DNA of 64,000 nt, taken from positions 516,006 through 580,005 of the forward strand of contig NZ_CAXXMJ010000002.1 of NCBI RefSeq assembly GCF_963677315.2. The letters run 5' to 3'. The notes under the pieces were generated by a model, which saw only the letters and a list, made by a program, of their open reading frames with translations, made no database searches and had not been told where the DNA came from. This document shows positions 21,799 to 45,963 of the stretch, one piece after another. The DNA comes from an uncultured Sphaerochaeta sp. (lineage in GTDB: Bacteria; Spirochaetota; Spirochaetia; Sphaerochaetales; Sphaerochaetaceae). Each line of letters starts with the position of its first letter. Within the stretch, counting starts at the first letter, position 1. Both the position numbers and the translations under genes were made by a program.

Positions 21799-24252
21799 TC
21801 AGACGCCGAGTCTGCTTGTCCTAAAGAACTCACCGTCAGTGAAATTGCTCTGGGGGACATATTCGGGAATCGGCAAAATCTGTTCGTGGATGGCATCCAG
21901 TACCGAGTACGCCTGTGCAAAGTAGTACTCCTCCATTTCTGCTGGCGGTGTGATCCAGTTCTTCGACCCGACCACAATTGTCGGAGCATCGAGATAGTCA
22001 AAGGCAAGCCTGCTGAGGTTGGAGCTTACGGTGTGCAGATAACTGCCACGTTCTGAGCTGTCGGTCACGAAGACTGCTCTTCCCGTCTTCTTCACTGATT
22101 CGATCAACAACTCATACTTGAGTGGGTTGATCCATCTCAGGTCGATCACCTCTGCCTCAATCCCCTTCTCGGCAAGCTGTTCTGCTGCCTTGGTTGCTGT
22201 ATAGAGAGCGGGTCCAAGGGCAATAAGCGTTACATCCTTACCTTCCCTTCTGATTACCGGTTCTCCTTCAGGAATCTCGTAGTAGCCCTCGGGAACACCT
22301 TCCTTCACGAACATCTCGCCAATTCCATAGAGTTTCTGGCTCTCAAAGAATACCACAGGGTCAGTACCACGGAGTGCGTAATTGAGCATGCCTTTCACAT
22401 CATACGGTGTTGCAGGATACATTGCCTTCAATCCGGGGACGGAAGCGACCATGCTGGTCCATTCCTGTGAGTGCTGTGCACCATACTTGTTACCAACTGA
22501 TACACGGAGCACAAGTGGCATCTTCAGGACACCGGCGCTCATTGCCTGCCATTTGGGCATCTGGTTGAATACCTCATCCCCTGCACAACCAAGGAAGTCA
22601 CAGTACATCAACTCGACAACTGCTCGTCCACCGGCCATCGCGTAGCCTACACCGCTTCCGACAATTGCTGATTCAGCGATTGGGGAGTTGAAGAAACGGG
22701 AAGGAGGAAGCAGTTCGGTAAGACCGCGGTAGCAGGCAAATGCCCCACCCCAATCTCGGTGATCCTCTCCATAGGCAACCATCGTCGGGTCAATGGAGAA
22801 GCGATGTGCCATTGCCTCGAAGACCGCATCACGATACTGGTACTGCTTTGCAGCAGGCAGTTCCTTGCCGTTCTCGTCGTAGGCATAGCGACTTCTGCGG
22901 GCAATCTGCTTCACCCTTGCATTGTCTTCCAGCTTCTCGAGGAGTACTGGTTCGCCATCATCAAGCTTCTCAACACTACCATTGGAGAACATCACGGACT
23001 CGACAAAATGCTCATCCACCATAGGGCTGAGTACCGGATCAACGGTAATCTCGAGTGTCTTTCTCATCTTCTCTTCAAGGACCGTATCAAACTGATCAAG
23101 CTCTTCCTGGCTTACAACTTTGTTCTCCAGGAGATAGTTGCCGTAGGCTACGATTGGATCCTGGTTACGGAATGCTTCCAGCTCTTCCTTCGTTCTGTAG
23201 GTCATTGCATCACTGGGGCTATGGCCGCTGTAGCGGTAGGTGATGGTATCCATGAACGCTGGACCCTCTCCCTTGAGGAGGATTTCTTTCTTGCGTGCCG
23301 TGGCATCTGCTACAGCAAGAGGGTTGAATCCATCAACACGCTCGGTGTGCATGGAGTATTCGTTGATAGCAGAGGCAACCCTTGCAGCAACCTTGTAGCC
23401 CATGGTCTCACCAACAGGCTGACCGCCCATGGCATAGAGGTTGTCAAAACAGTTGAGCATGAAAGGAGGATATCCTGGATTGTCTTCCCAGAGAGTCTTG
23501 TACTGGTCCATGGAGGATAGTACCAATCCTTCATAGACAGGACCACGTGCAAGCGCTCCATCACCGATATTGGCAATAACGATTCCCTTCTTTCGGTTGA
23601 TCTTCTTATAGAGGGAAGCACCTACTGCTATGGTACAGGAACCTCCGACAATTGCGTTGTTGGGCATGCTTCCAAAGGGCTTGAAGAAGGTATGCATTGA
23701 ACCACCAAGACCTGCTGAGAATCCAGGCTTCTTGGCATAAATTTCTGCCAATGCACCGTACAGTACAAAGTTCTCTGCAAGGTCACGAACATTCTCTCCG
23801 GGGAAGTGCTTCTCTACAATCTTGTAGGTCCCCCCATCCATGAATGACTCCATGATGGCAAGCAGTTCCTTGTCCTCCATCTTATAGATCGCACTCATGC
23901 TCTTGGCGAGAATCTCACCATGGCTACGGTGTGAACCAAAGATCTGATCCTCTGGATCGAGTACCATTGCCTGCCCGACAGCAGCACTTTCCTGACCGGA
24001 TGAGAGGTGGGCTGGTCCACGGTGGTTGTATGAAATTCCCTGATACACACCCTCTTTCTTGATGGTGTCCAACATGGTCTCAAATTTTCTAATCAAGAGC
24101 ATGTCATAGTAAGCACGGATCAGGCGTTCCTTTCCGTATTGCTTGAGCTCTTTCTTGATGTTGCTCTTGTACTGGTTAACAGGAATCGAGGGTGTTTCAA
24201 TAGTGAGAGGCTCCCTCAATTTTGCTGGATCAAATGGTATCGTTCTGGCCAT
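21799..24252 (-). CDS. Fused E1 alpha-beta component of a 2-oxoacid/acetoin dehydrogenase complex (TPP-dependent)
   Basis: Alpha half: GSHRSHGE, GLGGSMH, TPP motif NIGDGALARG. Beta half: FNSPIAESAIVGSGVGYAMAGGRAVVELMYCDF, then a transketolase-C-like end. Single uninterrupted 817-aa ORF. Confidence 0.8.
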   Translation of the reverse strand: MARTIPFDPAKLREPLTIETPSIPVNQYKSNIKKELKQYGKERLIRAYYDMLLIRKFETMLDTIKKEGVYQGISYNHRGPAHLSSGQESAAVGQAMVLDPEDQIFGSHRSHGEILAKSMSAIYKMEDKELLAIMESFMDGGTYKIVEKHFPGENVRDLAENFVLYGALAEIYAKKPGFSAGLGGSMHTFFKPFGSMPNNAIVGGSCTIAVGASLYKKINRKKGIVIANIGDGALARGPVYEGLVLSSMDQYKTLWEDNPGYPPFMLNCFDNLYAMGGQPVGETMGYKVAARVASAINEYSMHTERVDGFNPLAVADATARKKEILLKGEGPAFMDTITYRYSGHSPSDAMTYRTKEELEAFRNQDPIVAYGNYLLENKVVSQEELDQFDTVLEEKMRKTLEITVDPVLSPMVDEHFVESVMFSNGSVEKLDDGEPVLLEKLEDNARVKQIARRSRYAYDENGKELPAAKQYQYRDAVFEAMAHRFSIDPTMVAYGEDHRDWGGAFACYRGLTELLPPSRFFNSPIAESAIVGSGVGYAMAGGRAVVELMYCDFLGCAGDEVFNQMPKWQAMSAGVLKMPLVLRVSVGNKYGAQHSQEWTSMVASVPGLKAMYPATPYDVKGMLNYALRGTDPVVFFESQKLYGIGEMFVKEGVPEGYYEIPEGEPVIRREGKDVTLIALGPALYTATKAAEQLAEKGIEAEVIDLRWINPLKYELLIESVKKTGRAVFVTDSSERGSYLHTVSSNLSRLAFDYLDAPTIVVGSKNWITPPAEMEEYYFAQAYSVLDAIHEQILPIPEYVPQSNFTDGEFFRTSRLGV

Positions 24253-24263
24253 ATTGTTACTCC

Positions 24264-25616
24264 TTACAGACTATGGTCGAGTGCAAAGCAAGCATCCTTG
24301 ATAAGCTCGGATACACTCGGGTGTGGAAATACTATCTCTTTGACGTCCTGGACTCTTAGCTCTGCTTCAATGAGAGCAGAAGCGCCCCAGATAATCTCGC
24401 TGCTGTAGGGTCCCAGCAGATGAACTCCAAGAATGGCACCACTTTCCTGGTGACAGATCACTTTCACCAAGCCTGATGCACGCTTGCCTTGCTCAGCAAG
24501 GAAACGACCGTTTGCACGCATCTGTACGGTTTGACTCTTCACAGGAATGCCTTTCTCCTTGGCTTCCTTTTCTGTGATGCCACAACCAGCTGCCTCGGGA
24601 TTCGAGTAAACAGCCCAGGGAATTGCGTTGTAGCGCATGCGCATCTCTTTTGAACCGAAGATATTGGAGATGGCAACTTCTGCCATGCGGGATGCACTAT
24701 GGGCAAGGAGGGAGCGACCATTCACATCACCGATTGCCCAGATATTGGCAACATTGGTCTGCAGACGGTCATTTACCACTACCCCTTGTCGGTCGATATC
24801 CACTCCAAGCTTCTCCAGCCCCTGCGTGTTCGGCCTACGCCCAACACTCATCAGGACCAGCGCTGCTTCAGTGGACTGTTTATTTCCTTTGGCATCGGTA
24901 TAGAACACTGCTTCCTTGGTAATTTCCTCTACCTTGCAACCAAGGCGGAAGTCCACTTCCTTAAGCTCGCGTCTCATCAGCTTGGCGAATTCACCATCCA
25001 TCATGGGGAGAATTTCATCCATCATCTCTATGACGGTGACCTTGGTCCCAATCATGGAGAAGAACGAGGCAAATTCGATCCCGATAACCCCACCCCCGAT
25101 GACAACGAGAGATTTGGGCACTTTCTCGAGATCCAGGATCTCATTACTGGTAAGCACATGCTCCAGCTTTGCACCAGGGATAGGTGGAACAAAAGCGGAA
25201 GAGCCGGTAGCGATCATCAGGTAAGAACCTTCGTAGATGGTATCACCTACTTTCACATGATGAGGGTCAATGAATTCAGCTTCACCAAAAACTGTTTCCA
25301 CCTTGTTCGATTTCATCAGGAACTCTATACCACTCCTGAGTGTCCCCACCGTATCATTCTTCCAGATCATTGCATCAGGGAGGCTGAATGTCACCGAAGC
25401 AGCCTCAACACCATGTTTTGCACCATCAAGTGCATGATGGTAGAGTTTCGCACTATTGAGAAGACTCTTGGTGGGGATACACCCCCAGTTTGTACAGACT
25501 CCTCCAAGGTGCCCTCTCTCTATGAGCAGGACCTTCTTGCCAAGTGCCCCTGCTCTTTCTGCGGCAACATATCCGCCAGGACCGCTGCCAACTACGATTA
25601 AATCATATTTACTCAT
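24264..25616 (-). CDS. lpd: Dihydrolipoyl dehydrogenase (E3)
   Basis: FAD motif VVGSGPGGY, redox disulfide CTNWGCIPTK, NAD motif VIGGGVIGIE, C-terminal HPSVSE. Confidence 0.9.
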   Translation of the reverse strand: MSKYDLIVVGSGPGGYVAAERAGALGKKVLLIERGHLGGVCTNWGCIPTKSLLNSAKLYHHALDGAKHGVEAASVTFSLPDAMIWKNDTVGTLRSGIEFLMKSNKVETVFGEAEFIDPHHVKVGDTIYEGSYLMIATGSSAFVPPIPGAKLEHVLTSNEILDLEKVPKSLVVIGGGVIGIEFASFFSMIGTKVTVIEMMDEILPMMDGEFAKLMRRELKEVDFRLGCKVEEITKEAVFYTDAKGNKQSTEAALVLMSVGRRPNTQGLEKLGVDIDRQGVVVNDRLQTNVANIWAIGDVNGRSLLAHSASRMAEVAISNIFGSKEMRMRYNAIPWAVYSNPEAAGCGITEKEAKEKGIPVKSQTVQMRANGRFLAEQGKRASGLVKVICHQESGAILGVHLLGPYSSEIIWGASALIEAELRVQDVKEIVFPHPSVSELIKDACFALDHSL

Positions 25617-25625
25617 GTATCCTCC

Positions 25626-26960
25626 CTACAGTGCCAACAAGAGATCAATGGAGGCGATGTTGTCCATCAAGGCTTTCAGGAAGCGTGCAGCATCTGCACC
25701 ATCGACTGCCTGGTGGTCCATTGTCAGCGAGAGACCAATCTTTTCAATAAAGACGATATCCCCATCCTCATCCTCTACAGGTGTGAGGGTAATGCCGCCA
25801 ACCCCAAGGATTGCAACCTCAGGCACGTTGAGTACCGGGGTGAATGCATCAATACCAAAGGCTCCTACATTACTTACCGTGAAGGTTGAACCACTGAGTT
25901 CGTCAGGCTGGGCACTTCCTTCCTTGCACTTATCAATCAGGGCCTTGGTCTCTTCAGAGAGCTGGCGGAGGCTGAGCATGTCACTATTGCGCACCACAGG
26001 GACCAGAAGACCCTTCGGTGTGTCGGTAGCGACACCAAGATGCACATGACTAAAGCGCAGCATCTTATCTCCAAGGAAGTGTGCATTGAAGGCAGGGAAC
26101 TCCAACAAGGTTCTGCTGACGGCAAAGAGAATCAAGTCATTGATCGTAACCTTGTTCAAACCAAGCTCACTCTTGGCACTCTTGAATCCTGCTCTCAGAC
26201 GTTTCAGGGCACGTGCATCAGCCTGGGCATGAAGGGTAAGCTGGCATGTGGAATGAATGGATTCCATCATCCTCCTGGCAGTCACCTTTCTCACTCCCTT
26301 CACAGGTATCTCCTGAATCTCTTCAGAGACTTCTCCCATGCGTGATGGGGCAGCAATCGCAGGTTTCACCTGTAGGTCTGAAGAGAGGACTCTTCCTCCC
26401 ATGCCACTACCACGTCCTGGAGCCTGGAGCCCCTGTTCAAGTGCCTGCTCTCTTGCAACCGGACTGAGAGGCTCTCCAGCCACTGAGGCTACATCACGTT
26501 CAATGATGCGGCCTTTCGGACCGGTGGGCTGTACAGAGGAGAGAGATACTCCCATGGAGGAAGCCAGATTGCGTGCCCTGGGGCTGGAGCCCTGAGCCTT
26601 GTCGGCCGTAGAGGGAGGAGTAGCTTTTTCAGGTTGTGTATCCTCAGCTGTTGCTGTTTCCTGTTTCTCTTCCTTTGGTTCTTCTTTATTGGTTTCTGTC
26701 TTGGGAAGCTCGACCTTCTCGCCTTCCTCTCCGACCATGACGATGGGAACCATTACGGGAACATCATCCCCTTCCTCATACAGTAAGGCCAGGACTACAC
26801 CTTCAGCGGTCGATTCAACGTCAATGGTTGACTTATCGGTCTCTGCTGAGCATAGGACATCCCCTACAGCAACCTTGTCACCTACTTTGACATTCCATTC
26901 CACAATAATGCAGGATTCCACTGAGTTTCCCTGTTTGGGCATCACAACTTGTTGTGCCAT
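25626..26960 (-). CDS. Dihydrolipoamide acyltransferase (E2) with one lipoyl domain
   Basis: Lipoyl-lysine motif SAETDKST, a Pro/Glu/Lys-rich linker, a subunit-binding domain (GPKGRIIERDV) and the catalytic motif DHQAVDGADAARF. Confidence 0.85.
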   Translation of the reverse strand: MAQQVVMPKQGNSVESCIIVEWNVKVGDKVAVGDVLCSAETDKSTIDVESTAEGVVLALLYEEGDDVPVMVPIVMVGEEGEKVELPKTETNKEEPKEEKQETATAEDTQPEKATPPSTADKAQGSSPRARNLASSMGVSLSSVQPTGPKGRIIERDVASVAGEPLSPVAREQALEQGLQAPGRGSGMGGRVLSSDLQVKPAIAAPSRMGEVSEEIQEIPVKGVRKVTARRMMESIHSTCQLTLHAQADARALKRLRAGFKSAKSELGLNKVTINDLILFAVSRTLLEFPAFNAHFLGDKMLRFSHVHLGVATDTPKGLLVPVVRNSDMLSLRQLSEETKALIDKCKEGSAQPDELSGSTFTVSNVGAFGIDAFTPVLNVPEVAILGVGGITLTPVEDEDGDIVFIEKIGLSLTMDHQAVDGADAARFLKALMDNIASIDLLLAL

Positions 26961-26972
26961 GTGTTCACTCCT

Positions 26973-27737
26973 CTACTTTGCAATAAGGACCTCAACACCC
27001 TGCTCCTCGAGCTGGGTGATCAGGTCCGCAGGAAAACCACTGTCTGTGACAATGGTATCTATCTCTGTTACCGGCATAATCCGCACAAACCCACGATTCC
27101 CCACTTTTGAGGAATCAACGCACAAAACCCGCCGTGTGGCTTGTGCGCACATACGTTGTACCACCTGTGCATTTTCGATCAAGCTGGTGGTAAGTCCATG
27201 TTCCATGGTAAATCCATCTGTACCGAAGAAGGTGGTGGATACATGGTAGTTCTCTATCTGGGAAATGGCAGCAGGCCCGACAAGGGCCTCGGCTTCGCTT
27301 CGGTACTCACCACCAACCAGTGTGACCTGGAGCTGGGTATTTGCCCGTGCATAGGGCAGAATAAGCGTTGAATTGGTAACCACCCGTACATTTCTTTTCC
27401 CGAATATGTGTCTGGGAATCAGGGAACAGGTGGACCCATTGGTAATCATGATAAAGTCATTATCCTTCACCAAGGTGGCAGCAAGTTTTGCAATCAGGTC
27501 TTTTTTTGGAGTATTGGTATCGTCACGAAAGGCTGCTTGGGGAGCGGATGCAACCACGACCCGGCCGTGGCTTCGTATAACCAGTCCTTTGGAATCCAGA
27601 TCCCGTAAATCTCCCCTGATGGTAACCGCAGAAACTCCAAGCTCTTCGCTGAGCCTGGATACAGGATACTCTTCACCACTTTTCAGAAGCTGGAGTATGT
27701 GTTTTTCCCGAGGGGAAAGCCCTATCATATGATACAC
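26973..27737 (-). CDS. DeoR/GlpR-family transcriptional regulator
   Basis: N-terminal wHTH (YPVSRLSEELGVSAVTIRGDLRDLDSKGLV) plus a DeoR C-terminal sugar-phosphate sensor domain. It is the first gene of the tightly packed 8-gene unit. Confidence 0.85.
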   Translation of the reverse strand: MYHMIGLSPREKHILQLLKSGEEYPVSRLSEELGVSAVTIRGDLRDLDSKGLVIRSHGRVVVASAPQAAFRDDTNTPKKDLIAKLAATLVKDNDFIMITNGSTCSLIPRHIFGKRNVRVVTNSTLILPYARANTQLQVTLVGGEYRSEAEALVGPAAISQIENYHVSTTFFGTDGFTMEHGLTTSLIENAQVVQRMCAQATRRVLCVDSSKVGNRGFVRIMPVTEIDTIVTDSGFPADLITQLEEQGVEVLIAK

Positions 27738-27770
27738 TCCTACTTTCTTATCACTTTCGTTACGCTTTCG

Positions 27771-27799
27771 ATTCTATTACAGTATCGCTAACTTTTCAA
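27771..27799 (-). promoter_or_regulatory. Sigma70-type promoter candidate for the deoR-to-rhaB unit
   Basis: The minus strand reads TTGAAA-17 nt-TAGAAT, 34 nt upstream of the deoR ATG. It is flanked by CGAAAG / TTTCGAAA repeats. Confidence 0.55.
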
Positions 27800-31773: not shown

Positions 31774-32787
31774 TTAATAGATCTCTGCGAACTTCTCGAT
31801 GTTGTCCTTGTTGAATACATAAGGAGTACTCATGAAGGCAATACCGTTCTCTTCGACCTTGATTGAGCCCATGCGACCAGCAGGAATCTCTTCTCCAGTT
31901 GCACCATCAACCGTCCCTTCAATAAGACCATTGAGGATGTAGGTGGAGCTGTATCCAAGGTCAATTGGATTCCACAGTGCCATCTGGCGACAGGTGCCGT
32001 CGAGGATGTAGCCCTTCATCTCTGAAGGAAGACCAAGACCGGTTACTTCAACAACGCCACTCTTTCCAGCGTCCTTGACAGCCTGTGCGGTTGCAAGCAG
32101 ACCAACAGTGGTCGGACAGATGATAGCCTTCAGGTTGGGATACTTCTGCATCAAGGAGACAGCTTCACGATAGCTCTTATCGGGGGCATCATCACCATAG
32201 ACGACTTCAACAAGCTTCATGTTGGAATAGTCAGCTTCCTTGATCTCTTCCTTCATCCACTCAATCCAGAGATTCTGGTTGGTAGCCTGAGCAGAAGCGG
32301 AAAGGACAGCAACATCACCCTTGTAGTCAGTCAGTTCAGCAGCAAGCTGAATCTGCTGGCGTCCAATGAGTTCGGGGTTACTGGGCAGGAGGTCAACAAT
32401 TCGTCCACCTGCGTTGATACCGGAGTCATAACTGATAACCTTGATACCGGCTGCCATGGCTTTCTTGGCTACAGGAATCAATGCATCTGCATCGTTTGCG
32501 CTGATGGCAATACCATCAACTCTCTGTGCGATCAAGGTCTCGATGATCTCAATCTGTCCCTCTGCAGTAGCCTGGGGAGGTGCCATATAGGTCGTCTTAA
32601 TCCCACCAAGCTCAGCGGCAGCTTCTTCACTACCTTTGAATACTGCATCAAAGAACCCATTTCCCATACTCTTTCCGAGAATGACAATCTCTTTTTCACC
32701 AGCTGGTGCTGCTTCCTTGGTTCCCTGGGCAAACATTGCACCAAGGGCCATGGTCATGATGAGAACAAACAACAACGTTTTCTTCAT
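31774..32787 (-). CDS. rhaS: Rhamnose-type ABC transporter substrate-binding protein
   Basis: Signal peptide MKKTLLFVLIMTMALGAMFAQ plus a type-1 PBP fold. It is the first gene of a unit that ends in rhaM. The rhamnose specificity is inferred from context. Confidence 0.7.
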   Translation of the reverse strand: MKKTLLFVLIMTMALGAMFAQGTKEAAPAGEKEIVILGKSMGNGFFDAVFKGSEEAAAELGGIKTTYMAPPQATAEGQIEIIETLIAQRVDGIAISANDADALIPVAKKAMAAGIKVISYDSGINAGGRIVDLLPSNPELIGRQQIQLAAELTDYKGDVAVLSASAQATNQNLWIEWMKEEIKEADYSNMKLVEVVYGDDAPDKSYREAVSLMQKYPNLKAIICPTTVGLLATAQAVKDAGKSGVVEVTGLGLPSEMKGYILDGTCRQMALWNPIDLGYSSTYILNGLIEGTVDGATGEEIPAGRMGSIKVEENGIAFMSTPYVFNKDNIEKFAEIY

Positions 32788-32922
32788 AACAAAACACTCC
32801 TTTTGAGAAATCTTCTCCGGGAAAACCCGGAACCTATCTGTACCTGGCAGAACACCAGGGCAAACAGCAAAACTACTGTCACAACTTCCTTTACTCTTAG
32901 TGTGACACCGATTTCAAAATCT

Positions 32923-32963
32923 GCAATAACTGAATAGTCATTTTTTAGCACGATTTTATCATG
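32923..32963. promoter_or_regulatory. Rhamnose-regulon motif, copy A (GCAATAAC-N2-AATAGTCA-N6-TAGCACGATTTTATCATG)
   Basis: It lies 136-176 nt upstream of the rhaS start. Bases 32933-32963 match copy B in 28 of 31 positions. The block 32903-32963 matches copy C in 43 of 61 positions (ungapped hand alignment). Confidence 0.6.
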
Positions 32964-33188
32964 AATGTATTTAGTTCGGCTGAATAAAAGGTACGCTTTG
33001 AGCGTAGAAGAATTTCTGAAAGCCTCCCAAAAGGGGGACTAGAGTATATCAAGTACGAGTATTCTCCATCTGCAATTTTACTTATCAAGAGTATATTACT
33101 ATTTCTCTATAGCGCATTATTCAAGAATAATTCATCGATTATCATGAACCCACTATCAGATATAGATACCTGTTGTTCACACTCTAAG

Positions 33189-33686
33189 TTAATATTGCTT
33201 ATACTTCCGTAAGAAGAGTGGCTTAATCCCTCCACATGCAATCATTGAGAGCATCTGCTCCCCAATAATCTCGCCTTGGAACACTCTCGTCCCCACCATC
33301 ACTTTCGCAGATTCCAGATCAACATGAACTACATCGCCATCAGTCACATGCCTATGAATATCCTTACAAACCAGCAAAGGCAACCCTAGATTTAAGGAGT
33401 TACGATAAAAGATTCTTGCAAAGGAAGATGCAATCACAAGTGGGATCCCGTAATTCAGCAAGGCGATTGGAGCATGCTCTCGACTTGAGCCACATCCAAA
33501 ATTTGTTGCCGCAACTACGATAGTCCCGGGTTTTATCTTATCTCGCTTATCACTGCTCAATCCTTCAAAGCAATGTTGAGAGACTTGTTTAGGCTCTGAA
33601 AATCCAAGATATCGTCCAGGATAAATCTGATCTGTATCAATATTTTTCCCTAATACAACTACATTACCAGTAAATTGAAAACTCAT
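33189..33686 (-). CDS. Aconitase-superfamily hydro-lyase small subunit (LeuD/HacB-like, 165 aa)
   Basis: Swivel-domain motifs NIDTDQIYPGRYL and NFGCGSSREHAP. 4-nt overlap with the large-subunit gene. Confidence 0.75.
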   Translation of the reverse strand: MSFQFTGNVVVLGKNIDTDQIYPGRYLGFSEPKQVSQHCFEGLSSDKRDKIKPGTIVVAATNFGCGSSREHAPIALLNYGIPLVIASSFARIFYRNSLNLGLPLLVCKDIHRHVTDGDVVHVDLESAKVMVGTRVFQGEIIGEQMLSMIACGGIKPLFLRKYKQY

Positions 33687-34951
33687 AGCATGGATCCTTT
33701 ATTGCTGAGCAGAGTTGGAGCAGCCAACATCCCTTGAATAGCACTCTCTGCAACGACAGCAGGAGAAGCAAGGTACAATTCTGCATCTCTGCTTCCCATA
33801 CGTCCTGGAAAATTTCTATTGGATGCTGTTACACACACTTCACCAGGGGCTAGTAACCCTTCATGAGCCCCCAAACACGGTCCGCAACCTGGAGATACCA
33901 GTGTAGCCCCTGCCTTAAGAAGCTTTTGCAGTGTTCCATCAGCAAGACAATGCATCATCACTTGATCCGATGCAGGAATAATCAATAATCGCGTACCTGA
34001 CGCGACATGCCTATCCCCAATGATCTTTGCTGCAATCTGGAAATCCTCCTCTCTTCCTCCTGTGCAGGTTCCAATTAAGCATTGGTCAACCTTGACTGAG
34101 GTAACCTGAGAAAGAGGAAGAACTGAATCCACACTGTGAGGTACCGCAATTTGCGACTCCAGTCCATCGATATTGAAAGAGAATTTCTGGAAGTATTGAT
34201 AGTCGTCGTCTGTCTCATAAACGGTATACTCACTCACCCCTTTCTCTGTGAGGTAGGATAATACCAATTCATCAGGATGAATATATGCTGTCTTTGCTCC
34301 CATCTCAACGGCAAGATTGCACAACACCATCTTGGAAGCAACTGACAGTTGTTCAACATACGAACCACAAAATTCTATTGCCTGATAAATTGCACCATCT
34401 GCCTTAAGCTTACCTACAACGAGCAATGCTACATCCTTTGCCATGGTCAGGGGGCCAGGAGTTCCTTCCAGACATATCTGGATGACCTCAGGAACTTTTA
34501 TCCATAACTGTCCCTCGATCATCACAGTTGCCATGTCTGTTGCACCGATACCGGTACCAAATGCTCCAAAAGCACCATGGGTTGTAGTATGGCTGTCAGT
34601 TGCTACAAAAAACATACCAGGATAAATCAATCCTGCTTCTGGAAGTACTTGGTGACAGACACCTTTCTCCACATCAAAGTGATGAGTCAGTTTCTGAGAA
34701 AGAGCAAATTCACGCATTTTTTTGTGATTCTCTGCTCCCTCAATGGAGGGAGATGGAGCATAGTGATCAAACACAAATGCAAGTTTTTCCCTATCCCACA
34801 CACGTGTTCCACCCATCTCATAAAAGGAACGAATAGCTTGAAGGTAAATATCATTTACTTCAGCAAAGTCGACATTCGCCATCACAATTTGTCCGGCTGT
34901 CACTTCTACCTTGCCAGAAGCCTTTGCTAGTATTTTTTCCAATGCATGCAT
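33683..34951 (-). CDS. Aconitase-superfamily hydro-lyase large subunit (LeuC/HacA-like, 422 aa)
   Basis: DSHTTTHGAFGAFGTGIG. Three Fe-S ligand cysteines lie in IGTCTGG and PGCGPCLG. NRNFPGRMG. The start is 12 nt after the glycosidase stop. Confidence 0.75.
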   Translation of the reverse strand: MHALEKILAKASGKVEVTAGQIVMANVDFAEVNDIYLQAIRSFYEMGGTRVWDREKLAFVFDHYAPSPSIEGAENHKKMREFALSQKLTHHFDVEKGVCHQVLPEAGLIYPGMFFVATDSHTTTHGAFGAFGTGIGATDMATVMIEGQLWIKVPEVIQICLEGTPGPLTMAKDVALLVVGKLKADGAIYQAIEFCGSYVEQLSVASKMVLCNLAVEMGAKTAYIHPDELVLSYLTEKGVSEYTVYETDDDYQYFQKFSFNIDGLESQIAVPHSVDSVLPLSQVTSVKVDQCLIGTCTGGREEDFQIAAKIIGDRHVASGTRLLIIPASDQVMMHCLADGTLQKLLKAGATLVSPGCGPCLGAHEGLLAPGEVCVTASNRNFPGRMGSRDAELYLASPAVVAESAIQGMLAAPTLLSNKGSML

Positions 34952-34963
34952 CTACACTAACCC

Positions 34964-37900
34964 TCAACTCTCACGAATTTCGAGCCAAGGCTCTGTCAGG
35001 ATTCCTGCACTACGCACTTGGTAGACATAGCTATATTTCTCTTCAGCACTACGCCAAGCCTTCGGACCAAAATACGCTTCATAGGCATTACAATTGTGGA
35101 GTTGCCCAAATGTGTTAAATCGGTTTCCAAAACAGGTAATCTCAATGGTATGTGATTGGTTATCTACAAGACCAAGATCAATAGTGTATGGTTCCCCAAT
35201 GATCTGACCCTTGTCATTACCATCCAATGAAACAGTAAGCAGAGATCCCTTGTATTGAGGTACTTTCAACAACCACCGACCTGCTTCCGCTTGTGTCCTG
35301 ATTACATAGGTAATTGAATCCCCGTAGAAAGGGAATCCTTGTCGGGTGATATCCCCAAATGAAATAGTGTGAGGTTTTTCACAGAGCATTGCCTTACTTC
35401 CCAGGAGACGTACGCCGAAGTCTCCAAGAAGGTAACACCATTCAAGATTAGTCTTTTTTCCATAAGGGATGTTCATTTCCAGCGTGTTGTTTCCTCTTTT
35501 CACTGTTCCGATTTTCCGGACAGGAAGACAGGGATCAACAAAATAGTTGCCACTCAGGGATTCTGTTATAGCATTACCATTGAAAACTATCTCTGCATCG
35601 GGTGTTTCACATGCTAGGGAAACCATCACACCATCAATTTCAGACTCAAAATCAAATCGCAATTGGACTTTGTGGGGCAAGGTTTCTTCATCCGGAACCA
35701 GCCATGGCTGAGGGAACGCCTCAGAACGTATCGGATACCCACATTCAGAACGAATTGCATCATCCAAGATCAACATCTCTTCAACATCATTCCAACTACC
35801 CCCATCAAGTGAGTATGCAGCTTGATCGAGCAAAAGATGATTTTGTTCATGCAATTGATAGGATGAAATCTCACGGATCCGATGTTTTTGCAATAGCCGA
35901 GGAGTATTGCTATCCACAGTGACTGTAATATTATTTAATTCCTTCTCAGTAGAAAGTTCGAACAACAAACTGTCATGCACATGCAAAGGATAAGAAAAAT
36001 GTGTCCATCCTTGCTTATGATCAACTTCCAATTCTATACGGTTACCTGTAAAGGTATCCAGCAATGTTACAGAGTGAAGACCTCTAACTTTTATCATACG
36101 TGTAAAATCTTCATCACTACGGAAGTTTTGCTGTTGCATCCGATTGCTTTCTCTTCCGTGGGCAATAAACAACAGAGTGCGTTTACCGTCATTTCTCATC
36201 TGATAGATAAGATCATTGCATAACGTATGATGACCATCATAGATTGCAACATCGCGCTCCGTATCCAGTGCATTAAGCAGTGCCCATTGGTCAAAACCAA
36301 TATGTAAGGCATCTCGTGTCGCTTCAAGCGCTACGTCACTTTTCTGCCCATCGACATAGGAAGGTGCCCCTCCCAGGAATATCACCTTTCCTCCAGATGC
36401 AATGAATTCTTTCAGAATAGCTAGGGTGGTACTCCGGATAGTGATAAATTGGGGGACCACCAGAACTTCATAATTCATTTCCCCGATATGACAGCTTTTC
36501 TCGTCACATCCATTAAACAATTTTGGCAACAGAGACTCAGCGACGAAATCATAATCCAATTGAGCAAACAATAACCAAGAGGTTATTGAAGTAAACTGCT
36601 CCTCTAGTTGTTTTCGTATTCCAATAGTCGCATCATCAGGGCCGAGGGTAAGCCAATAGCTTTCGATAGGATGGAGCACCCCGATCCGTACCCTAGGCTT
36701 TCCTGTAGTAAGCGCAACGTTGACTCGTGAAAAATGATCCTCAATTGTACGATATTCTTTGTACCAAGTAGAATGTTGGTCTATAGGAGCTGGATAGTCT
36801 CGCTTTGACTCTCCAGCCATAGTTGCCCAACAAAGATGATGCACACGTACAGTAACCCCCAAGGCAGCCTGCCAATCGCCTTGCAACTTATGTCCGCGGA
36901 AATCAAAATCCCAGTTTGTTACTCCATACAACTCGCTTAGTACTCCAGGGTAGCCAAACTGGTGACATGCACTTTGTGCCTGTTTTGCAGTTGCATACTC
37001 CCTTCGGTCTGCAAGCATATCTATACCTGGGAGCTTAAAGCTTCTATAGGATCGCATTGCCTCCCCGCAAAGGCGACTTTGCAGATCCAAGGTAGACTCT
37101 CCCATAAGATGTCCAGTACTAAGAATACCGTGGGATGTACACCAATCATCCAAAACATCACAATAAGCAGATGTAAATCGTTCCGTCAATATTTCAAAAT
37201 AGCGATATCGTGTTACCGGATATGCACCTGTTGTAGATTCCCAGAAAAGTTCTGGGAGCTTATCAAAGAGGCTTTCTCCGAAAACTTGTTGATATGATTC
37301 GTCAAATGTATCGGTAAATGGAATACCTACCTCATCATTCGATTCTGAGCATGAGAAATTCTGCAACTTAAAATACTGAGGTTCATCAGTAAACATCGCA
37401 GGAACTGATTTGCCCAACTCCTCTTTCAGGGTAGCGGCATACACGTCATGTGTAACACGGGTAAATTCTTTTGCTGCCTCAGGATTGAGCGTATCAACAT
37501 ACGATTGGTTGTTGAACCAGGAACTGGCTCCAGAGATAACTCTGTAAGCATGCCATATCTGGGTTCCTTCCTGAGCACTTGCACCTTTTTCTACTTTTTT
37601 ATAGCTACTCAATCTACCCTGCTCCAGAGTCACCTCATAGGAACAAAGATATGAACAATCACCATTCATATTCACGCGAGAGGCTTGGGGCAAATGTCTA
37701 TCGACATACCCATCCTCATGAAGAATCGGGCTAAAAAGGAGATACCTGATCCTGAACTCCTCATGCTGGGTGACAAGTCCTCCTGCAAATCCTGAAGGCC
37801 ACTTATCCTCATCATACAACCATGTGAGCATACCCAACTTCTTGCCAACTGTATTGCAATGCTCAACCAATTGCATGAATCTTGGCCCTAGATATGGAGT

Positions 37901-38089
37901 ATTCAAGCCTATTCGAGAATGAATATGGAACCCCCCAAAACCCATCTCGTGAAAAATCTCTATTTGCTTTTCAAGCGTCGCCTCATCCAAATCAGAGTTC
38001 CATGACCAGAATGGGGTTCCCCGGTATTCACTGGTAGGTTGTGAAAACTTATCGTTAAATGATGTATTGTGATTATAGAGAGATTTCAT
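34964..38089 (-). CDS. Large cytoplasmic glycoside hydrolase, family uncertain (possibly GH106-like alpha-L-rhamnosidase)
   Basis: 1041 aa with no signal peptide. The N-terminal YRGTPFWSWN...GFGGFHIHSRIGL pattern is one I associate, from memory only, with TIM-barrel glycosidases of the rhamnosidase type. It is co-transcribed with a CUT1 sugar transporter. Confidence 0.5.
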   Translation of the reverse strand: MKSLYNHNTSFNDKFSQPTSEYRGTPFWSWNSDLDEATLEKQIEIFHEMGFGGFHIHSRIGLNTPYLGPRFMQLVEHCNTVGKKLGMLTWLYDEDKWPSGFAGGLVTQHEEFRIRYLLFSPILHEDGYVDRHLPQASRVNMNGDCSYLCSYEVTLEQGRLSSYKKVEKGASAQEGTQIWHAYRVISGASSWFNNQSYVDTLNPEAAKEFTRVTHDVYAATLKEELGKSVPAMFTDEPQYFKLQNFSCSESNDEVGIPFTDTFDESYQQVFGESLFDKLPELFWESTTGAYPVTRYRYFEILTERFTSAYCDVLDDWCTSHGILSTGHLMGESTLDLQSRLCGEAMRSYRSFKLPGIDMLADRREYATAKQAQSACHQFGYPGVLSELYGVTNWDFDFRGHKLQGDWQAALGVTVRVHHLCWATMAGESKRDYPAPIDQHSTWYKEYRTIEDHFSRVNVALTTGKPRVRIGVLHPIESYWLTLGPDDATIGIRKQLEEQFTSITSWLLFAQLDYDFVAESLLPKLFNGCDEKSCHIGEMNYEVLVVPQFITIRSTTLAILKEFIASGGKVIFLGGAPSYVDGQKSDVALEATRDALHIGFDQWALLNALDTERDVAIYDGHHTLCNDLIYQMRNDGKRTLLFIAHGRESNRMQQQNFRSDEDFTRMIKVRGLHSVTLLDTFTGNRIELEVDHKQGWTHFSYPLHVHDSLLFELSTEKELNNITVTVDSNTPRLLQKHRIREISSYQLHEQNHLLLDQAAYSLDGGSWNDVEEMLILDDAIRSECGYPIRSEAFPQPWLVPDEETLPHKVQLRFDFESEIDGVMVSLACETPDAEIVFNGNAITESLSGNYFVDPCLPVRKIGTVKRGNNTLEMNIPYGKKTNLEWCYLLGDFGVRLLGSKAMLCEKPHTISFGDITRQGFPFYGDSITYVIRTQAEAGRWLLKVPQYKGSLLTVSLDGNDKGQIIGEPYTIDLGLVDNQSHTIEITCFGNRFNTFGQLHNCNAYEAYFGPKAWRSAEEKYSYVYQVRSAGILTEPWLEIRES

Positions 38090-38092
38090 GAA

Positions 38093-38929
38093 TTATCCTT
38101 TAACCGCACCGGCAGTTACACCTTCGAGGATTCTCTTGTTCAAAATGAGATAGAGAATGAACGGAGGGAGAGAGATGAGAACAATTGCTGCAAACAAATA
38201 ATTCCACTGCGTAAGAAATGCTGATTGGAATGTATAGACGAACAATTGAATCGTGCTGTTTCTTGCACCCGACATGTAATACAATGGATTTGCAAAATCG
38301 TTATACACGACAACCGACCGAAGAATGACAATTGTCGCTGTAATCGGTTTTAGTATTGGAAATATGATTTGAAAATAGAGCCGGGATGCAGAACATCCAT
38401 CAATAATGGCAGCAGCATCAATATCCCTTGGGATGGTTGCCATATAACCTTTATAAATCATAACCGAAAATGGGAACATTGTTGCCACTTCCACCAAGGT
38501 AAGACCGGCAAGTGTGCCGACCACACCCAACTGGGACAAAATCCAATAGGTTGAGATTACCGATGGGGGTACTATGAGACCAGCCAGAATCAACTTATTT
38601 GAAATCTTTGAAAATTTTCCTTGTCTTCGCTGCATGATATACCCTGTCATGCTGGCAACCAAGACAAGAATTACTATCGATATGATAGTAAGACGAATAC
38701 TGTTCCACATCGATCGAAAGAACAATCCATCACCATAGCTAAGGATATATGAATAATTTTCAATTATTTGCCACTTCTTAGGAAATGCCAGTGACAATCT
38801 CGCTGCTTCTGCTCTCGTCTTGAATGAATTAATGATGATGAAATAAAACACAACCCAATGTGTGAGGAATGTCAAAATCAGTGCTGATACTTCTCCAATT
38901 ATGGTCGCGGCGCTTCTTTTTATTTTCAT
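38093..38929 (-). CDS. CUT1 carbohydrate ABC transporter permease (MalG-like)
   Basis: 6-TM BPD-transporter fold with an EAA-like loop (DIDAAAIIDGCSASRLYFQIIFPILKP). The start overlaps the upstream stop. Confidence 0.85.
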   Translation of the reverse strand: MKIKRSAATIIGEVSALILTFLTHWVVFYFIIINSFKTRAEAARLSLAFPKKWQIIENYSYILSYGDGLFFRSMWNSIRLTIISIVILVLVASMTGYIMQRRQGKFSKISNKLILAGLIVPPSVISTYWILSQLGVVGTLAGLTLVEVATMFPFSVMIYKGYMATIPRDIDAAAIIDGCSASRLYFQIIFPILKPITATIVILRSVVVYNDFANPLYYMSGARNSTIQLFVYTFQSAFLTQWNYLFAAIVLISLPPFILYLILNKRILEGVTAGAVKG

Positions 38930-39792
38930 TAGAGTTCAACCTCCCTTTTTGCTACGAAGTGATTGAGAGGGAAAATGATGAAAGAGATTGAAATAAACAG
39001 GATTACGCTTCCTGCTGTAGCCAACCCATACATTCCTTGCCCGAATAGTCTATATACTACCAAGCCCAGAACTTCAGTTGAAAATCCTGGACCTCCCTCA
39101 GTCATGGTGAGGATCAATTCATAACTCTTCAAACCGCCGATCAATGACAGGGTTAGTACTGTGTTGATCGAAGAAATAATCATCGGCAATGTGATAAATC
39201 TAAAGGTCTGCACCCTGCTCGCTCCGTCAATCTTTGCCGCTTCATAATAGTCAGGGGAGATAGCTCGTAACCCTGCGATATAGATAACAGTGGTAACACC
39301 AATCCCTTTCCAGAAATCAACCAAGATAACTGAGAACAACGCTATATCTGGATTAATCAACCAACGTACCTTACTGATTCCAAAGAATGCCAACCCTTGG
39401 TTGATAATACCCGAGGGGTGCATCAAGCTGGAAAAGGCAATACCTACTACGACAAAGCCGAGAAGTGTTGGAAAATATATGATACTTTTCAAATAGCCCG
39501 AAGTCTTCAACTTCCCGCAGAGGCCAGCCGCTATAAATAGACCAAAGATTACTTTCGATAGACTTGTAGAAAACGCGTAGATAAACGTATTTCCCAAAGC
39601 TGTACGCAAATTAGTTTGAGAGAAAAAAGTCTTGAAGTTTTCCAAACCGATGAACGTTGTGCTGATTAAGTTCCACCGTGTCAAAGAAAAATAAAATGAC
39701 AAGAAGGTTGGCAAGCCAAAGATAATTAGATAGATAAGCAAACCAGGCATTACCATCCAATATTTGTATACATGTTTTTCATAACTATTCAT
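38929..39792 (-). CDS. CUT1 carbohydrate ABC transporter permease (MalF-like)
   Basis: 6-TM BPD-transporter fold with an EAA loop (YYEAAKIDGASRVQTFRFITLPM). Confidence 0.85.
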   Translation of the reverse strand: MNSYEKHVYKYWMVMPGLLIYLIIFGLPTFLSFYFSLTRWNLISTTFIGLENFKTFFSQTNLRTALGNTFIYAFSTSLSKVIFGLFIAAGLCGKLKTSGYLKSIIYFPTLLGFVVVGIAFSSLMHPSGIINQGLAFFGISKVRWLINPDIALFSVILVDFWKGIGVTTVIYIAGLRAISPDYYEAAKIDGASRVQTFRFITLPMIISSINTVLTLSLIGGLKSYELILTMTEGGPGFSTEVLGLVVYRLFGQGMYGLATAGSVILFISISFIIFPLNHFVAKREVEL

Positions 39793-39821
39793 GATAATTT
39801 ACCGGCCTAATGATAGATTAA

Positions 39822-39858
39822 TAAAGAAAAACCCAAGGCGAAACACACGTTTCGCCTT
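39822..39858 (-). terminator. Intrinsic terminator/attenuator after the CUT1 SBP gene
   Basis: The minus strand reads AAGGCGAAAC gtgt GTTTCGCCTT: a perfect 10-bp stem followed by GGGTTTTTCTTTATT. Confidence 0.65.
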
Positions 39859-39878
39859 AGGTTTAGAAATGCTGTTGC

Positions 39879-41189
39879 TTACCAGTTAGAAAGACCAAGC
39901 TGCTTAGCGGAGATTGCGTTGTCTTTGTCAATCTCTCGGGCTGCTACCTCAGGGGTAATCATTCCAGCTGCAACCTGACTGGTGTAAGTTGCCTGGTTGA
40001 TACCCTTGATGGGACTATAGTATTCCATGACTGGAATGGAAGCTTTCTCTACCCATGCCTGTGCTTCAGCCAATGAAGGATAAATATCTTCTGGGAACTC
40101 CACACCATTGAGCATGAAGGCACCGGTGGGCTTCTGAACAGAAAGATATGCCTGTACAGCTTCATTTGTGGTCATGAATTCAAGGAACAACAATGCCAAT
40201 TCAGGATTTGTTGCATTCTTGTTTGCCAAGTATGCCATTGGCATCCAAGTGGCGACACCACGTACATTGGGGTCTTTATCCGGAAGTGGGAAGAATCCCA
40301 TATCCTGAATCGCATCGGGAACCAATATCTCCATGGTTGAGAGAATATTTGTTCTGATGATTGACATGGCTGCTGTGCCGTCCCCAAGCATCATTGCAAC
40401 ATCCTCAACTGATGTAGCCAATGCATCCTCATTCAGATAGTCATTCACTGCAAGGTCATACATTTTCTGAAGACCTCCAACAAATGTCTTGGAGTCTGAA
40501 AGCCTGATTTCATTCCGTGTGTACTTTGCTGCAAATTCAGGATCTTCCTGGGCAACATAGTAGTAGTTCATCAAGAACGGAACTTGGGTGAGGCTTGTCT
40601 TTGAGTTTGGAGCCGCAACCGGAGCAATTCCTGCTTTCTTGATTACTGCACAAGTGTCCAAGAACTCATTCCATGTCAATGGAACATCAAGCCCCAAATC
40701 TTCAAAGATTCTCTTATTGTAGAAAACACCTGCAACGTTGGATGGAGCCAAGGGCACGCCATACACAGCACCATCAATGGTAGCAGCTTCTTTAAAGTTA
40801 GCATCAAGATTGCCAATCCATGGCTGATCCTTGATGTCAATTACATTTTCAGCAGGATAACTCTCATAGAGTTTTGCACCTACAGAACTTGCAAAGATAT
40901 CTGGCAAGGACTTTGTAGCAACACGTGTTCTCCTGAGGTTTTCTCCTGCATCACCACTGGGAACGACCTCTACTTCAATTTTTACGCCGTACTTTTCTTC
41001 AAAAGCCTTGTGCTGGGCTCTTGCTGCCTCAAATTCACCTTCTTTGTTAGTCATCATCATGGTAAGAGTCTGACCCGCAAATTTGCTCTTGCCTTCAGTA
41101 GGGACAGCAACCTCCTGCTTCCCTGCTGCAAAAATGTTCAAAGGCAATACAACAAGTACCAATAATAACAGAACAATACCTTTTCTCAT
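39879..41189 (-). CDS. CUT1 (family 1) extracellular solute-binding protein for an oligosaccharide ABC transporter
   Basis: Signal peptide MRKGIVLLLLVLVVLPLNIFAAG, 436 aa, MalE-like fold. AAGGAGAAAGGA SD. Confidence 0.8.
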   Translation of the reverse strand: MRKGIVLLLLVLVVLPLNIFAAGKQEVAVPTEGKSKFAGQTLTMMMTNKEGEFEAARAQHKAFEEKYGVKIEVEVVPSGDAGENLRRTRVATKSLPDIFASSVGAKLYESYPAENVIDIKDQPWIGNLDANFKEAATIDGAVYGVPLAPSNVAGVFYNKRIFEDLGLDVPLTWNEFLDTCAVIKKAGIAPVAAPNSKTSLTQVPFLMNYYYVAQEDPEFAAKYTRNEIRLSDSKTFVGGLQKMYDLAVNDYLNEDALATSVEDVAMMLGDGTAAMSIIRTNILSTMEILVPDAIQDMGFFPLPDKDPNVRGVATWMPMAYLANKNATNPELALLFLEFMTTNEAVQAYLSVQKPTGAFMLNGVEFPEDIYPSLAEAQAWVEKASIPVMEYYSPIKGINQATYTSQVAAGMITPEVAAREIDKDNAISAKQLGLSNW

Positions 41190-41482
41190 TCCTTTCTCCT
41201 TTTGTTCCGGAAATCCGGATATATTTCAATTCCTGTATTTCAGGAATTTTACACTTCTAACAATATGTAGCAAATCACCTCCTCAAAATATATCTTTATA
41301 TCAAATTGAAATCAAATCTAATTCCTCATAGTGTCATATGTAAATTATGTAATTATGTTCACAATTTTGTTGCTAGGTATTACATTTAGAAAATACATTT
41401 CAAATATCTATAAATATTTTATATTTTCTGGATATAACATCAATTCTTTTCTAATGAAAGTCTGACACATTTACAAATAAGC

Positions 41483-41522
41483 GCAATAACGTAATTGTCA
41501 ATTTTTAGCACTATTTTGCCAT
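41483..41522. promoter_or_regulatory. Rhamnose-regulon motif, copy C (GCAATAAC-N2-AATTGTCA-N6-TAGCACTATTTTGCCAT)
   Basis: It lies ~300 nt upstream of the CUT1 SBP start, in the same orientation as copies A and B. The minus-strand reading contains a perfect TTGACA. Confidence 0.55.
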
Positions 41523-41722
41523 ATTCATAATTATTTGCAAAACAAAAGCCAAAAAAAAGGATTCTGTAAGTATCTCGTAATGCATCGAAAACCTAAAATC
41601 AGGGGACTCTTCTCAGCCTAATGACTTTTCGCATAGAAAACAGAAATGCCTATAAGTCACGCAGCCGGATATAGGATTTTTCATTGTAATAGATTGATAG
41701 AGAACAGAAATGAAGAGTCAGA

Positions 41723-42664: not shown

Positions 42665-42669
42665 CTTAC

Positions 42670-44996: not shown

Positions 44997-45065
44997 GACA
45001 GCCCTCCTCATACGAAAGTATTTACTCTAATAGTTTGCCATCATTTGCATTTTTTACCTTGACAG

Positions 45066-45096
45066 AATAGTCAAATTCTAGCACGATTTTATCATG
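45066..45096. promoter_or_regulatory. Rhamnose-regulon motif, copy B (AATAGTCA-N6-TAGCACGATTTTATCATG)
   Basis: It sits in the 97-nt rhaA/araC-type divergent region. Its last three bases are the listed ATG of the AraC-family gene. Confidence 0.6.
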
Positions 45097-45963
45097 TCTA
45101 GTTTTACTCTGCACGAAACCATGTTCTTCAAGGAAAACAGCCTTCCTGTGAAGGTGTTACTCCGTGACCCCGAGATTCCTTTCTCATTGCATGGACATGA
45201 TTTCTATGAAATCGTGGTGGTGGTATCAGGGAAAGGCTTCCACCTCTTGCAACAGGACAAGCGACAGTTGCAGGAAGGCATGGTGTTCTGTATTCGCCCG
45301 GGAACCATCCACGGATATGCAGATATCGAGAATCTGGTCCTCTACAATCTACTTATTGGAAAGAAGGCCTTTTCAGTGCTCTATCCCGAGGTCAAGGACG
45401 TGGCTGGGTTTCCTGAGACATTCATGCAAGAAGAAGGGGACGTCCCACTGGTTCGGCTCAACTCACACCAACACGCTGAGATTGTAGCCCTGGTAAGCGC
45501 AGTCAAGGAGGAGTCGGAGCAACAGGACTACAGCAAGGGATCGACCTCAATGACCTACTCCAAATTGCTCCAATTTCTCATCCTGGTAAGCAGGTTCCAC
45601 AGTGCTCGACGAGGTTCTGCTTTCCAGAATGATCAACGTCTCGAGAAAGTCATCATCTATATGGAGCAGAATATTGACCGAAGCATTCCCTTGAACGAGC
45701 TCGTTGAGGTCTCGAACATGAGTGCAAGCACACTCAACCGACAGTTCAAGCTATCAACGGGTTGGTCTCCAGTCGATTTCCATATCCATAGACGTATTGC
45801 CTATGCTTCAAACCTGCTTCTGACCACTGACCTGAGCATTGAAAGAATCAGTGAAAAAACCGGATTTTCAGATGCAAATTACTTCGCACGCCAGTTCAGG
45901 AGTCATATGCAGATGAGTCCACGGCAGTATAAACAGCTGTGGACCACCCCAAAAGAAGATTAG
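45094..45963 (+). CDS. AraC-family regulator with an N-terminal cupin sugar-binding domain (RhaS/RhaR-like)
   Basis: Cupin motif HGHDFYEIVVVVSGKG (compare E. coli RhaS HHHDFHEIVIV, from memory). C-terminal double HTH ending in ANYFARQFRSHMQMSPRQYK. Neither ATG 45094 nor ATG 45121 has an SD, so the start is uncertain. Confidence 0.8.
   Translation: MSSFTLHETMFFKENSLPVKVLLRDPEIPFSLHGHDFYEIVVVVSGKGFHLLQQDKRQLQEGMVFCIRPGTIHGYADIENLVLYNLLIGKKAFSVLYPEVKDVAGFPETFMQEEGDVPLVRLNSHQHAEIVALVSAVKEESEQQDYSKGSTSMTYSKLLQFLILVSRFHSARRGSAFQNDQRLEKVIIYMEQNIDRSIPLNELVEVSNMSASTLNRQFKLSTGWSPVDFHIHRRIAYASNLLLTTDLSIERISEKTGFSDANYFARQFRSHMQMSPRQYKQLWTTPKED

Follow-up and report, generated by a model that had tools for sequence, protein, structure and literature searches.

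We identified in the genome of an uncultured Sphaerochaeta sp. three copies (A, B and C) of a conserved promoter module that probably places three operons related to rhamnose under the control of one AraC-family regulator. The copies were found in a stretch of 64,000 nucleotides, the whole of which was analyzed and is referred to below as the window. Each copy joins a site of ~39 bp, the candidate operator, to a short element that resembles an extended -10, and each stands upstream of a transcription unit related to rhamnose (Table 1). At a probability of roughly two in three (0.68), we read each copy as a regulated promoter module whose operator would be bound by the AraC-type regulator to activate the operon downstream. 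The sequence and geometry of the module are conserved, it is associated with the same kinds of genes in other genomes, and its operator is periodic.

Table 1. Coordinates, in the window, of the three module copies, the regulator and its promoter, and the genes of the locus.
Feature	Position	Strand	Description
Copy A operator	32923..32961	-	Tandem half-sites TGATAAAATCGTGCTAAAAAA / TGACTATTCAGTTATTGC; upstream of rhaSTPQM; in register with the 49 instances
Copy A extended -10-like element TGTCACACT	32899..32907	-	53 nt from GTGCTA to ACT, as in 49/49 instances
Copy B operator	41483..41521	-	Upstream of the binding-protein/two-permease/1041-aa glycosidase/LeuCD-like operon (33189-41189)
Copy B extended -10-like element TGTCAGACT	41459..41467	-	
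Copy C operator	45056..45094	-	Between rhaA and the AraC-family gene; predicted control of rhaA-aldolase-BASS
Copy C extended -10-like element TGGCAAACT	45032..45040	-	
Regulator's own promoter (predicted)	45059..45096	+	-35 TTGACA at 45059-45064, 17 nt, -10 CACGAT at 45082-45087, 6 nt, ATG at 45094
AraC-family regulator, candidate binder	45094..45963	+	Pfam PF02311 and PF12833: cupin sugar-binding domain, double helix-turn-helix
rhaA	about 44996 to 43746	-	True start about 44996, after GAGGAGG; followed by class II aldolase and BASS transporter genes
Operon B: binding protein, two permeases, 1041-aa glycosidase, LeuCD-like	41189-33189	-	
rhaS, rhaT, rhaP, rhaQ, rhaM	32787-27820	-	rhaS ATG at 32787
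deoR	27737-26973	-	DeoR-family regulator
E2, E3, E1, 438-aa protein, SDR, ADH, FGGY kinase	after deoR, to 16588	-	

No direct-repeat family of the window ranks above that of the three copies, which spans 66 nt at 70-73% identity. The core pattern AATWGTCA-N5-TAGCACNATTTT matches three times in the 64 kb when up to three mismatches are allowed, against 0.02 matches expected from shuffles. A preliminary description of this DNA had reported 28 of 31 identical bases between copies A and C and an ungapped match of 43 of 61 between copies A and B; both values and all the stated coordinates proved exact, and the similarity of copy C to copy A was found to continue over the full 61 nt (44/61, at 45036-45096), which had been missed. 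By comparison, the next-best 61-mer match on either strand of the window reaches 31-32 of 61 (mean 15.5, sd 3.5), and a search of the window with an nhmmer profile of copies A, B and C detected no fourth copy, in agreement with the earlier search. As described, all three copies are oriented alike, on the plus strand and each upstream of a minus-strand transcription unit. Their internal spacing is also constant, although the spacer before TAGCAC is one nucleotide shorter than stated (GTCA-N5-TAGCAC), the T of TAGCAC having been counted as the last base of an 'N6'. Further, NCBIfam and Pfam searches confirmed the gene identities that link the locus to rhamnose (RhaA, the rhamnose ABC substrate-binding protein RhaS, the class II aldolase, the BASS transporter, and the AraC-family and DeoR-family regulators).

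We compared 80 loci around orthologs of the regulator gene and scanned metagenome contigs for the core pattern. The two sources together yielded 49 distinct full instances in Sphaerochaeta genomes and metagenomes. The conservation of orthologous positions in dozens of genomes supports the view of the preliminary description that the copies share a cis-regulatory site which is not palindromic. Read on the minus strand, all instances conform to the consensus TGAyAAAATnGTGCTAnAAnnTGAyTATTCnGTyAnnGC - N15 - TGnCAnACT, a module of ~70 bp in which the ~39-bp site is followed by 15 bp and then by the proximal block TGnCAnACT. The distance from GTGCTA to ACT is exactly 53 nt in all 49 instances, with no indel, so the geometry of the module is rigid; the TG, CA and ACT of the proximal block are invariant in the same 49. 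C-type copies (n = 30), which lie between rhaA and the regulator gene, read ...CTGTCAAGG..., and A/B-type copies (n = 19), which lie upstream of rhaS or another sugar binding-protein gene, read ...CAGTyATTGC...; both fit GTyAnnGC at the corresponding positions. Orthologs of copy A occur upstream of the rhaS binding-protein gene in nine loci (L001-L008 and L017). All AraC orthologs examined in Sphaerochaetaceae have the copy C site upstream, and a recognizable form of it is also present in Verrucomicrobiota and Kiritimatiellota.

The conserved site is periodic. Self-similarity of the module peaks at offsets of 11, 21, 32 and 43 in the main group and at offsets of 11 and 21 in the distant orthologs, with values of 0.41-0.52 at offsets 11 and 21 versus about 0.25-0.3 elsewhere, the identity between half-sites being modest (5-9 of 17 positions, typically about 8). 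The repeat is clearest in the distant orthologs, where both halves read TGGCnnnATnGT and are 21 bp apart; a group-specific profile found no second copy of the motif in these distant loci. This pattern suggests that the operator is composed of two tandem half-sites of ~18 bp placed 21 bp apart, each with two TG-containing sub-boxes separated by ~11 bp. The tandem 21-bp periodicity is in line with the earlier remark that a non-palindromic site would fit the asymmetric sites of AraC-type proteins.

The association of the module with rhamnose genes extends to the metagenomes. The core pattern had 66 exact matches in the metagenome contigs, and 38 of these were part of a full module. Most of the full modules were located upstream of rhaA (22) or the rhaS binding-protein gene (12), three preceded another sugar binding-protein/permease operon that is convergent with a GH88-family gene, and one stood at a contig end; apart from this last one, no full module was found outside the upstream regions of rhaA, rhaS and sugar binding-protein genes. 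The site therefore behaves as that of a regulon, standing upstream of several functionally related operons and being conserved across genomes.

The distal 'TGACAC' block of the preliminary description corresponds, on the minus strand, to the invariant TGnCAnACT at its fixed distance, and its role is now seen differently. TGnCAnACT is best read as a weak extended -10-like, activator-dependent core promoter element, in which case the 61-66 nt unit would comprise an operator plus a core promoter. With CAnACT as the -10 hexamer, the TG falls at -15/-14, the A at -11 and the T at -7. The hexamer is a poor match to a -10, and there is no -35 match 16-18 nt upstream of TGnCAnACT. Distant orthologs carry a TAnnnT hexamer (TAsCAT, TACTCT or TATCTT) equally far from the site, 19-20 nt beyond GTCAAGG. 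TGnCAnACT is followed by a leader that ends in a strong Shine-Dalgarno sequence and whose length differs, being about 15-45 nt in the case of rhaA and about 105 nt in that of rhaS. Transcription is predicted to start near 32892 for copy A, which leaves about 105 nt before the rhaS ATG, and near 45025 for rhaA at copy C, and the operator would then span about -69 to -31 with its proximal end overlapping the -35 region. The TTGAC[A/T] sequence that had been put forward as a possible -35 has no -10 16-18 nt downstream in any copy or ortholog. It is probably the TGAy start of the second half-site, and the -35 region is predicted about 15 nt beyond it, where the site overlaps this region with its proximal end. 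Copy B fits the core-promoter reading less well, since its start codon is about 270 nt away downstream and a better sigma-70-like site, TTGATG-16-TAAAAT (41443-41416), is found just after the module. A sigma-54 or other alternative-sigma reading of the TGGCA... sequence was also considered and rejected, there being no GC/TTGC at -12.

A second factor, be it the DeoR-family protein or another, might bind the proximal AAAnnGTGnCAnACT block over the -10 while the AraC-type activator occupies the distal ~39 bp. The invariance of TG, CA and ACT is unusual for a -10, and the block can be aligned with half-site 1 as a third, degenerate repeat 42-43 bp downstream, which corresponds to the self-similarity peak at offset 43. 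Furthermore, the exact TGnCAnACT was encountered in no loci other than those of the main group, and each of these has a linked deoR gene. Dual control of this kind nonetheless appears unlikely. The proximal block is devoid of the GAAAG boxes that mark the deoR promoter, the -10 region of Parasphaerochaeta coccoides differs although deoR is linked there too, and the likeness to half-site 1 could merely reflect the A-rich, TG-containing nature of promoter DNA.

We also considered that the copies arose as duplicated promoter DNA and contain no site for a dedicated regulator. Half-site 1 would then be an extended -10 (TGCTAnAAT) and the second block another promoter in tandem with it, both conserved solely for recognition by RNA polymerase. 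GTGCTAnAAT does fit TGnTAnAAT, and several genomes have a perfect TGCTATAAT. In addition, the other 28 of the 66 metagenome matches have the core only; they come from unrelated AT-rich contigs and resemble common extended -10 promoters, a finding explained by the likeness of the first half-site to a generic extended -10. However, copies A and B (TAAAAA) lack the key T at -7, as do about half of the distant orthologs (TAAAAC, TAGAAG, TAAAAG), and GTGCTA and TGAy are invariant even though this T is lost, which weakens the promoter-only interpretation. The ~39 contiguous conserved base pairs with 21-bp tandem symmetry also go far beyond what the polymerase needs, and the confinement of full modules to rhamnose-related operons is not what plain promoter DNA would show. 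We therefore regard this explanation as quite unlikely and retain the reading of the ~39-bp site as an operator.

Copy C also contains, on the opposite strand, the predicted promoter of the regulator gene. The elements CCTTGACA and CAyrAT, with their 17-nt spacing, are kept in about 40 orthologous loci, and the arrangement CCTTGAs-17-CACwAT-6-ATG recurs in loci of Verrucomicrobiota and Kiritimatiellota, where the regulator gene is again divergent from rhaA; in all, the regulator is adjacent to and divergent from rhaA in more than 40 loci. The initiating methionine (M1) is invariant in 20 aligned orthologs, and an in-frame TAG is located 5 codons upstream of the ATG. Because this ATG (45094) has no Shine-Dalgarno sequence and coincides with the predicted +1, the regulator mRNA is predicted to be leaderless. 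The operator covers the regulator promoter from -35 to +1, implying autoregulation, which is probably negative. A plus-strand sigma-70 promoter of this kind was found in copy C only. In copies A and B, AATAAC replaces TTGACA and a plus-strand gene is lacking, but the core is kept; thus, the core is not conserved merely as the promoter of the regulator. Another plus-strand candidate in copies A and B (TAGTCA-16-TATCAT, 9/12) was discarded, as its hexamers are not conserved in the A/B-type copies of other genomes and no plus-strand gene is present.

The regulator itself is 94% identical in S. halotolerans, and homologs assign the window to Sphaerochaeta. Its best NCBIfam matches are to RhaS (135 bits) and RhaR (118 bits), both scores being far below the respective equivalog cut-offs (288 for RhaS; 525 for RhaR), and it is therefore not a member of these E. 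coli-type families, although it would work in a similar way. One could speculate that the rhaA/AraC pair travels as a self-contained cassette in which a single stretch of ~39 bp serves both as the activator site and, on the opposite strand, as the spacer, -10 and +1 of the leaderless regulator mRNA, with the geometry CCTTGAs-17-CAywAT-6-ATG in Spirochaetota, Verrucomicrobiota and Kiritimatiellota. The third degenerate repeat over the target -10 might then repress in the absence of the effector, like a compact, loop-free version of the AraC 'light switch'. We offer this extension as a doubtful one. In the genes next to the regulator we also observed fucU (-) and fucI (+) (45960-48315), which adjoin it in all main-group loci and have no copy of the motif.

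The AraC-family protein encoded at 45094, named in the preliminary description as the simplest candidate, stands as the best candidate for the protein that binds the module. The site abuts the start codon of every regulator ortholog down to about 30% identity, including those of Verrucomicrobiota and Kiritimatiellota, it has the 21-bp tandem periodicity described above, and it persists in loci with no deoR nearby. The motif could instead be the operator of the DeoR-family regulator, which would repress the rha operons in the manner of the Rhizobium RhaR. All main-group loci have deoR linked to rhaSTPQM, and the 11-bp periodicity of the module is reminiscent of DeoR-type RhaR motifs, which are direct repeats with a period of 10-11 bp (PMC3870299). 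As the AraC-type and DeoR genes always co-occur in the main group, co-occurrence alone cannot separate them there. The deoR gene has, however, a promoter of its own (TTGAww, about 17 nt, TAGAAT or TACAAT), followed by GAAAG-N6-GAAAG-N6-GAAAG (27743-27776, minus strand). The three GAAAG boxes (27743-27769, 11-bp period) are unique in the window, are found upstream of deoR in 12 genomes, and are absent from copies A, B and C; they form a candidate operator that is typical of DeoR proteins and bears no relation to the rhamnose motif. Further, in a Pleomorphochaeta sp. the deoR-E2-E3-E1-448aa-SDR-ADH-kinase operon is on a different contig from the AraC/rhaA locus (L023), which still carries the motif, and the motif is also present at several loci of Sphaerochaetaceae and Treponema where the surrounding 9 kb or so contain no deoR. 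The separate operator of deoR, its unlinking in Pleomorphochaeta and the motif loci that lack it together point to the AraC-type protein and make it very unlikely that DeoR is the binder. Most likely, DeoR controls the dehydrogenase and kinase operon downstream of it, as a unit separate from rhaM.

These observations are compatible with a simple mechanism, in which we infer the identity of the binder and the sign of regulation, like the predicted positions of the transcription starts, from sequence comparison. The AraC-family, RhaS/RhaR-like protein (45094-45963) would bind the operator, presumably as a dimer, in response to L-rhamnose. Once bound at a site that overlaps the -35 region, it would activate sigma-70 transcription of three units: rhaA-aldolase-BASS from copy C, the operon for the uptake and hydrolysis of rhamno-oligosaccharides from copy B, and rhaSTPQM from copy A. 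The opposite strand of copy C would act as the regulator's own strong promoter, with transcription starting at the A of the ATG, and occupancy of the operator would also autoregulate the regulator, most likely negatively.

The number of module copies tracks the number of transcription units. There is one copy where rhaA, the aldolase gene and rhaSTPQM are contiguous, there are two where BASS or a gap precedes rhaS, and there are three in the window, where an 8.8-kb segment with copy B and its operon lies between BASS and copy A. This segment (32966-41731) is absent from L001, the closest relative examined at the junction, and in L002 and L003 BASS, the motif and rhaS follow in this order with no B operon. 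The point where homology to L001 is regained coincides exactly with the distal edge of copy A, a hint of insertion or recombination at the motif. That copies A and B flank a segment missing from L001 could be taken as a sign that the motif is a generic dispersed repeat, the remnant of a mobile element or an RNA-level element. Such an origin is highly improbable, since there are neither terminal inverted repeats nor a transposase, the orientation of the motif is fixed relative to the downstream operon, its copies occupy orthologous positions in different genomes, the greater part of the module precedes the predicted transcription start, and a scan of 32500-45300 against Rfam gave no match (two sub-threshold chance hits only).

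The layout proposed for the module has a well-known counterpart in the araI1-I2 site of the E. coli araBAD promoter. AraC binds there to two direct-repeat half-sites of ~17 bp with a 21-bp period, located at roughly -72 to -35, and the site overlaps the -35 of a promoter whose -35 is weak, in a case of class II activation. The AraC gene is divergent and autoregulated. The Sphaerochaeta module is similar in its predicted tandem half-sites, 21-bp period and overlap with the -35, and in its divergent regulator gene, which is likewise predicted to be autoregulated. It differs from AraC/araBAD in the sequence of the module, which is unrelated, and there is no evidence here for a distant looping site of the O2 type. 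Also unlike AraC/araBAD, the promoter of the Sphaerochaeta regulator is predicted to lie inside the activating operator and its mRNA is apparently leaderless. The less usual feature of the system is this embedding of a predicted leaderless promoter in the regulator's own operator.

The rhamnose regulators of other bacteria provide a second set of comparisons. The Sphaerochaeta protein shares with E. coli RhaS/RhaR the AraC family and cupin domain and, by prediction, the response to rhamnose and an operator of ~50 bp over the -35. In E. coli, the half-sites for RhaS and RhaR are 17 bp long and arranged as inverted repeats, 16-17 bp apart (PMC3870299); unlike those of rhaBAD and rhaSR, the Sphaerochaeta repeats appear to be tandem with a 21-bp period, and there is one regulator rather than a RhaS/RhaR pair. 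Similar in design are the AraC-type RhaR regulons of Bacillales, Bacteroides and Enterococcus, for which lineage-specific direct repeats with a 21-bp periodicity were predicted (Rodionova et al., 2013; PMC3870299). Those regulons are local and include the rha catabolic genes, transporters and rhamno-oligosaccharide genes (PMC3870299). The predicted Sphaerochaeta regulon resembles them in its 21-bp tandem periodicity and local extent, and differs in motif sequence and lineage, Spirochaetota having been outside the scope of that comparative study (PMC3870299). As with the DeoR-family RhaR of Rhizobium leguminosarum, deoR is linked in Sphaerochaeta to genes for an ABC transporter of the rhaSTPQ type. 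Unlike the R. leguminosarum regulator, the Sphaerochaeta DeoR goes with the GAAAG x3 operator at deoR-E2-E3-E1-SDR-ADH-kinase and not with the rhamnose motif.

A full-text literature search returned no earlier description of this rhamnose operator in Sphaerochaeta. The predicted gene switch is of an ordinary, conventional kind, though not yet described for Sphaerochaeta as far as this search shows. The analysis provides a candidate operator and a predicted three-operon regulon for the use of rhamnose and rhamno-oligosaccharides in Sphaerochaeta, a genus of sugar fermenters that abounds in digesters, sediments and guts. It also proposes a local division of labor between the two regulators, with the AraC-type protein assigned to the rhaA, rhaS and oligosaccharide promoters and the DeoR-type protein to the dehydrogenase-complex and kinase operon. 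In related genomes, members of the regulon such as accessory operons for glycoside uptake can be annotated with the help of the motif, and the promoter and regulator are a candidate rhamnose-inducible pair for genetic tools in spirochaetes.

Additional observations concern the genes around the modules. The predicted glycosidase of operon B (1041 aa; 34964-38089, minus strand) had a sub-threshold Pfam match to GH106 alpha-L-rhamnosidases (E = 6.6e-6), a weak NCBIfam match of the BT4145 type (E = 1e-9) and no relative in a PDB sequence search, and it may be a divergent rhamnosidase. Beside it is a LeuC/LeuD-like pair (33189-34951), which is unexpected in a sugar operon. The deoR gene heads a conserved eight-gene block (16588-27737 in the window; also L143 and L144) encoding DeoR, E2, E3, a fused E1, a protein of ~440 aa with no Pfam match, an SDR, a Zn-ADH and an FGGY kinase. 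Its E1, E2 and E3 genes would specify a complex resembling a 2-oxoacid dehydrogenase. In Sphaerochaeta and Parasphaerochaeta the block adjoins the genes of the rha transporter, but in Pleomorphochaeta it stands alone. A second cupin-AraC regulator is present in Pleomorphochaeta (L144, 7830-7931), divergent from a gene pair for an FGGY kinase and an XylA2_C-domain protein and next to fucI and fucU.

The 5' leader of rhaS (32816-32868, minus strand) contains a conserved hairpin, GCUGUUUG-[CCUGG-loop-CCAGG]-uACAAAUAG, with no match in Rfam, and a second hairpin, UUCCGG...CCGGAA, directly before the Shine-Dalgarno sequence. A few compensatory changes were seen in this leader across genomes. A leader hairpin like that of rhaS is found in the other binding-protein gene controlled by the motif (L097 and L109), and a role of the rhaS hairpin in mRNA stability or translation control is possible.
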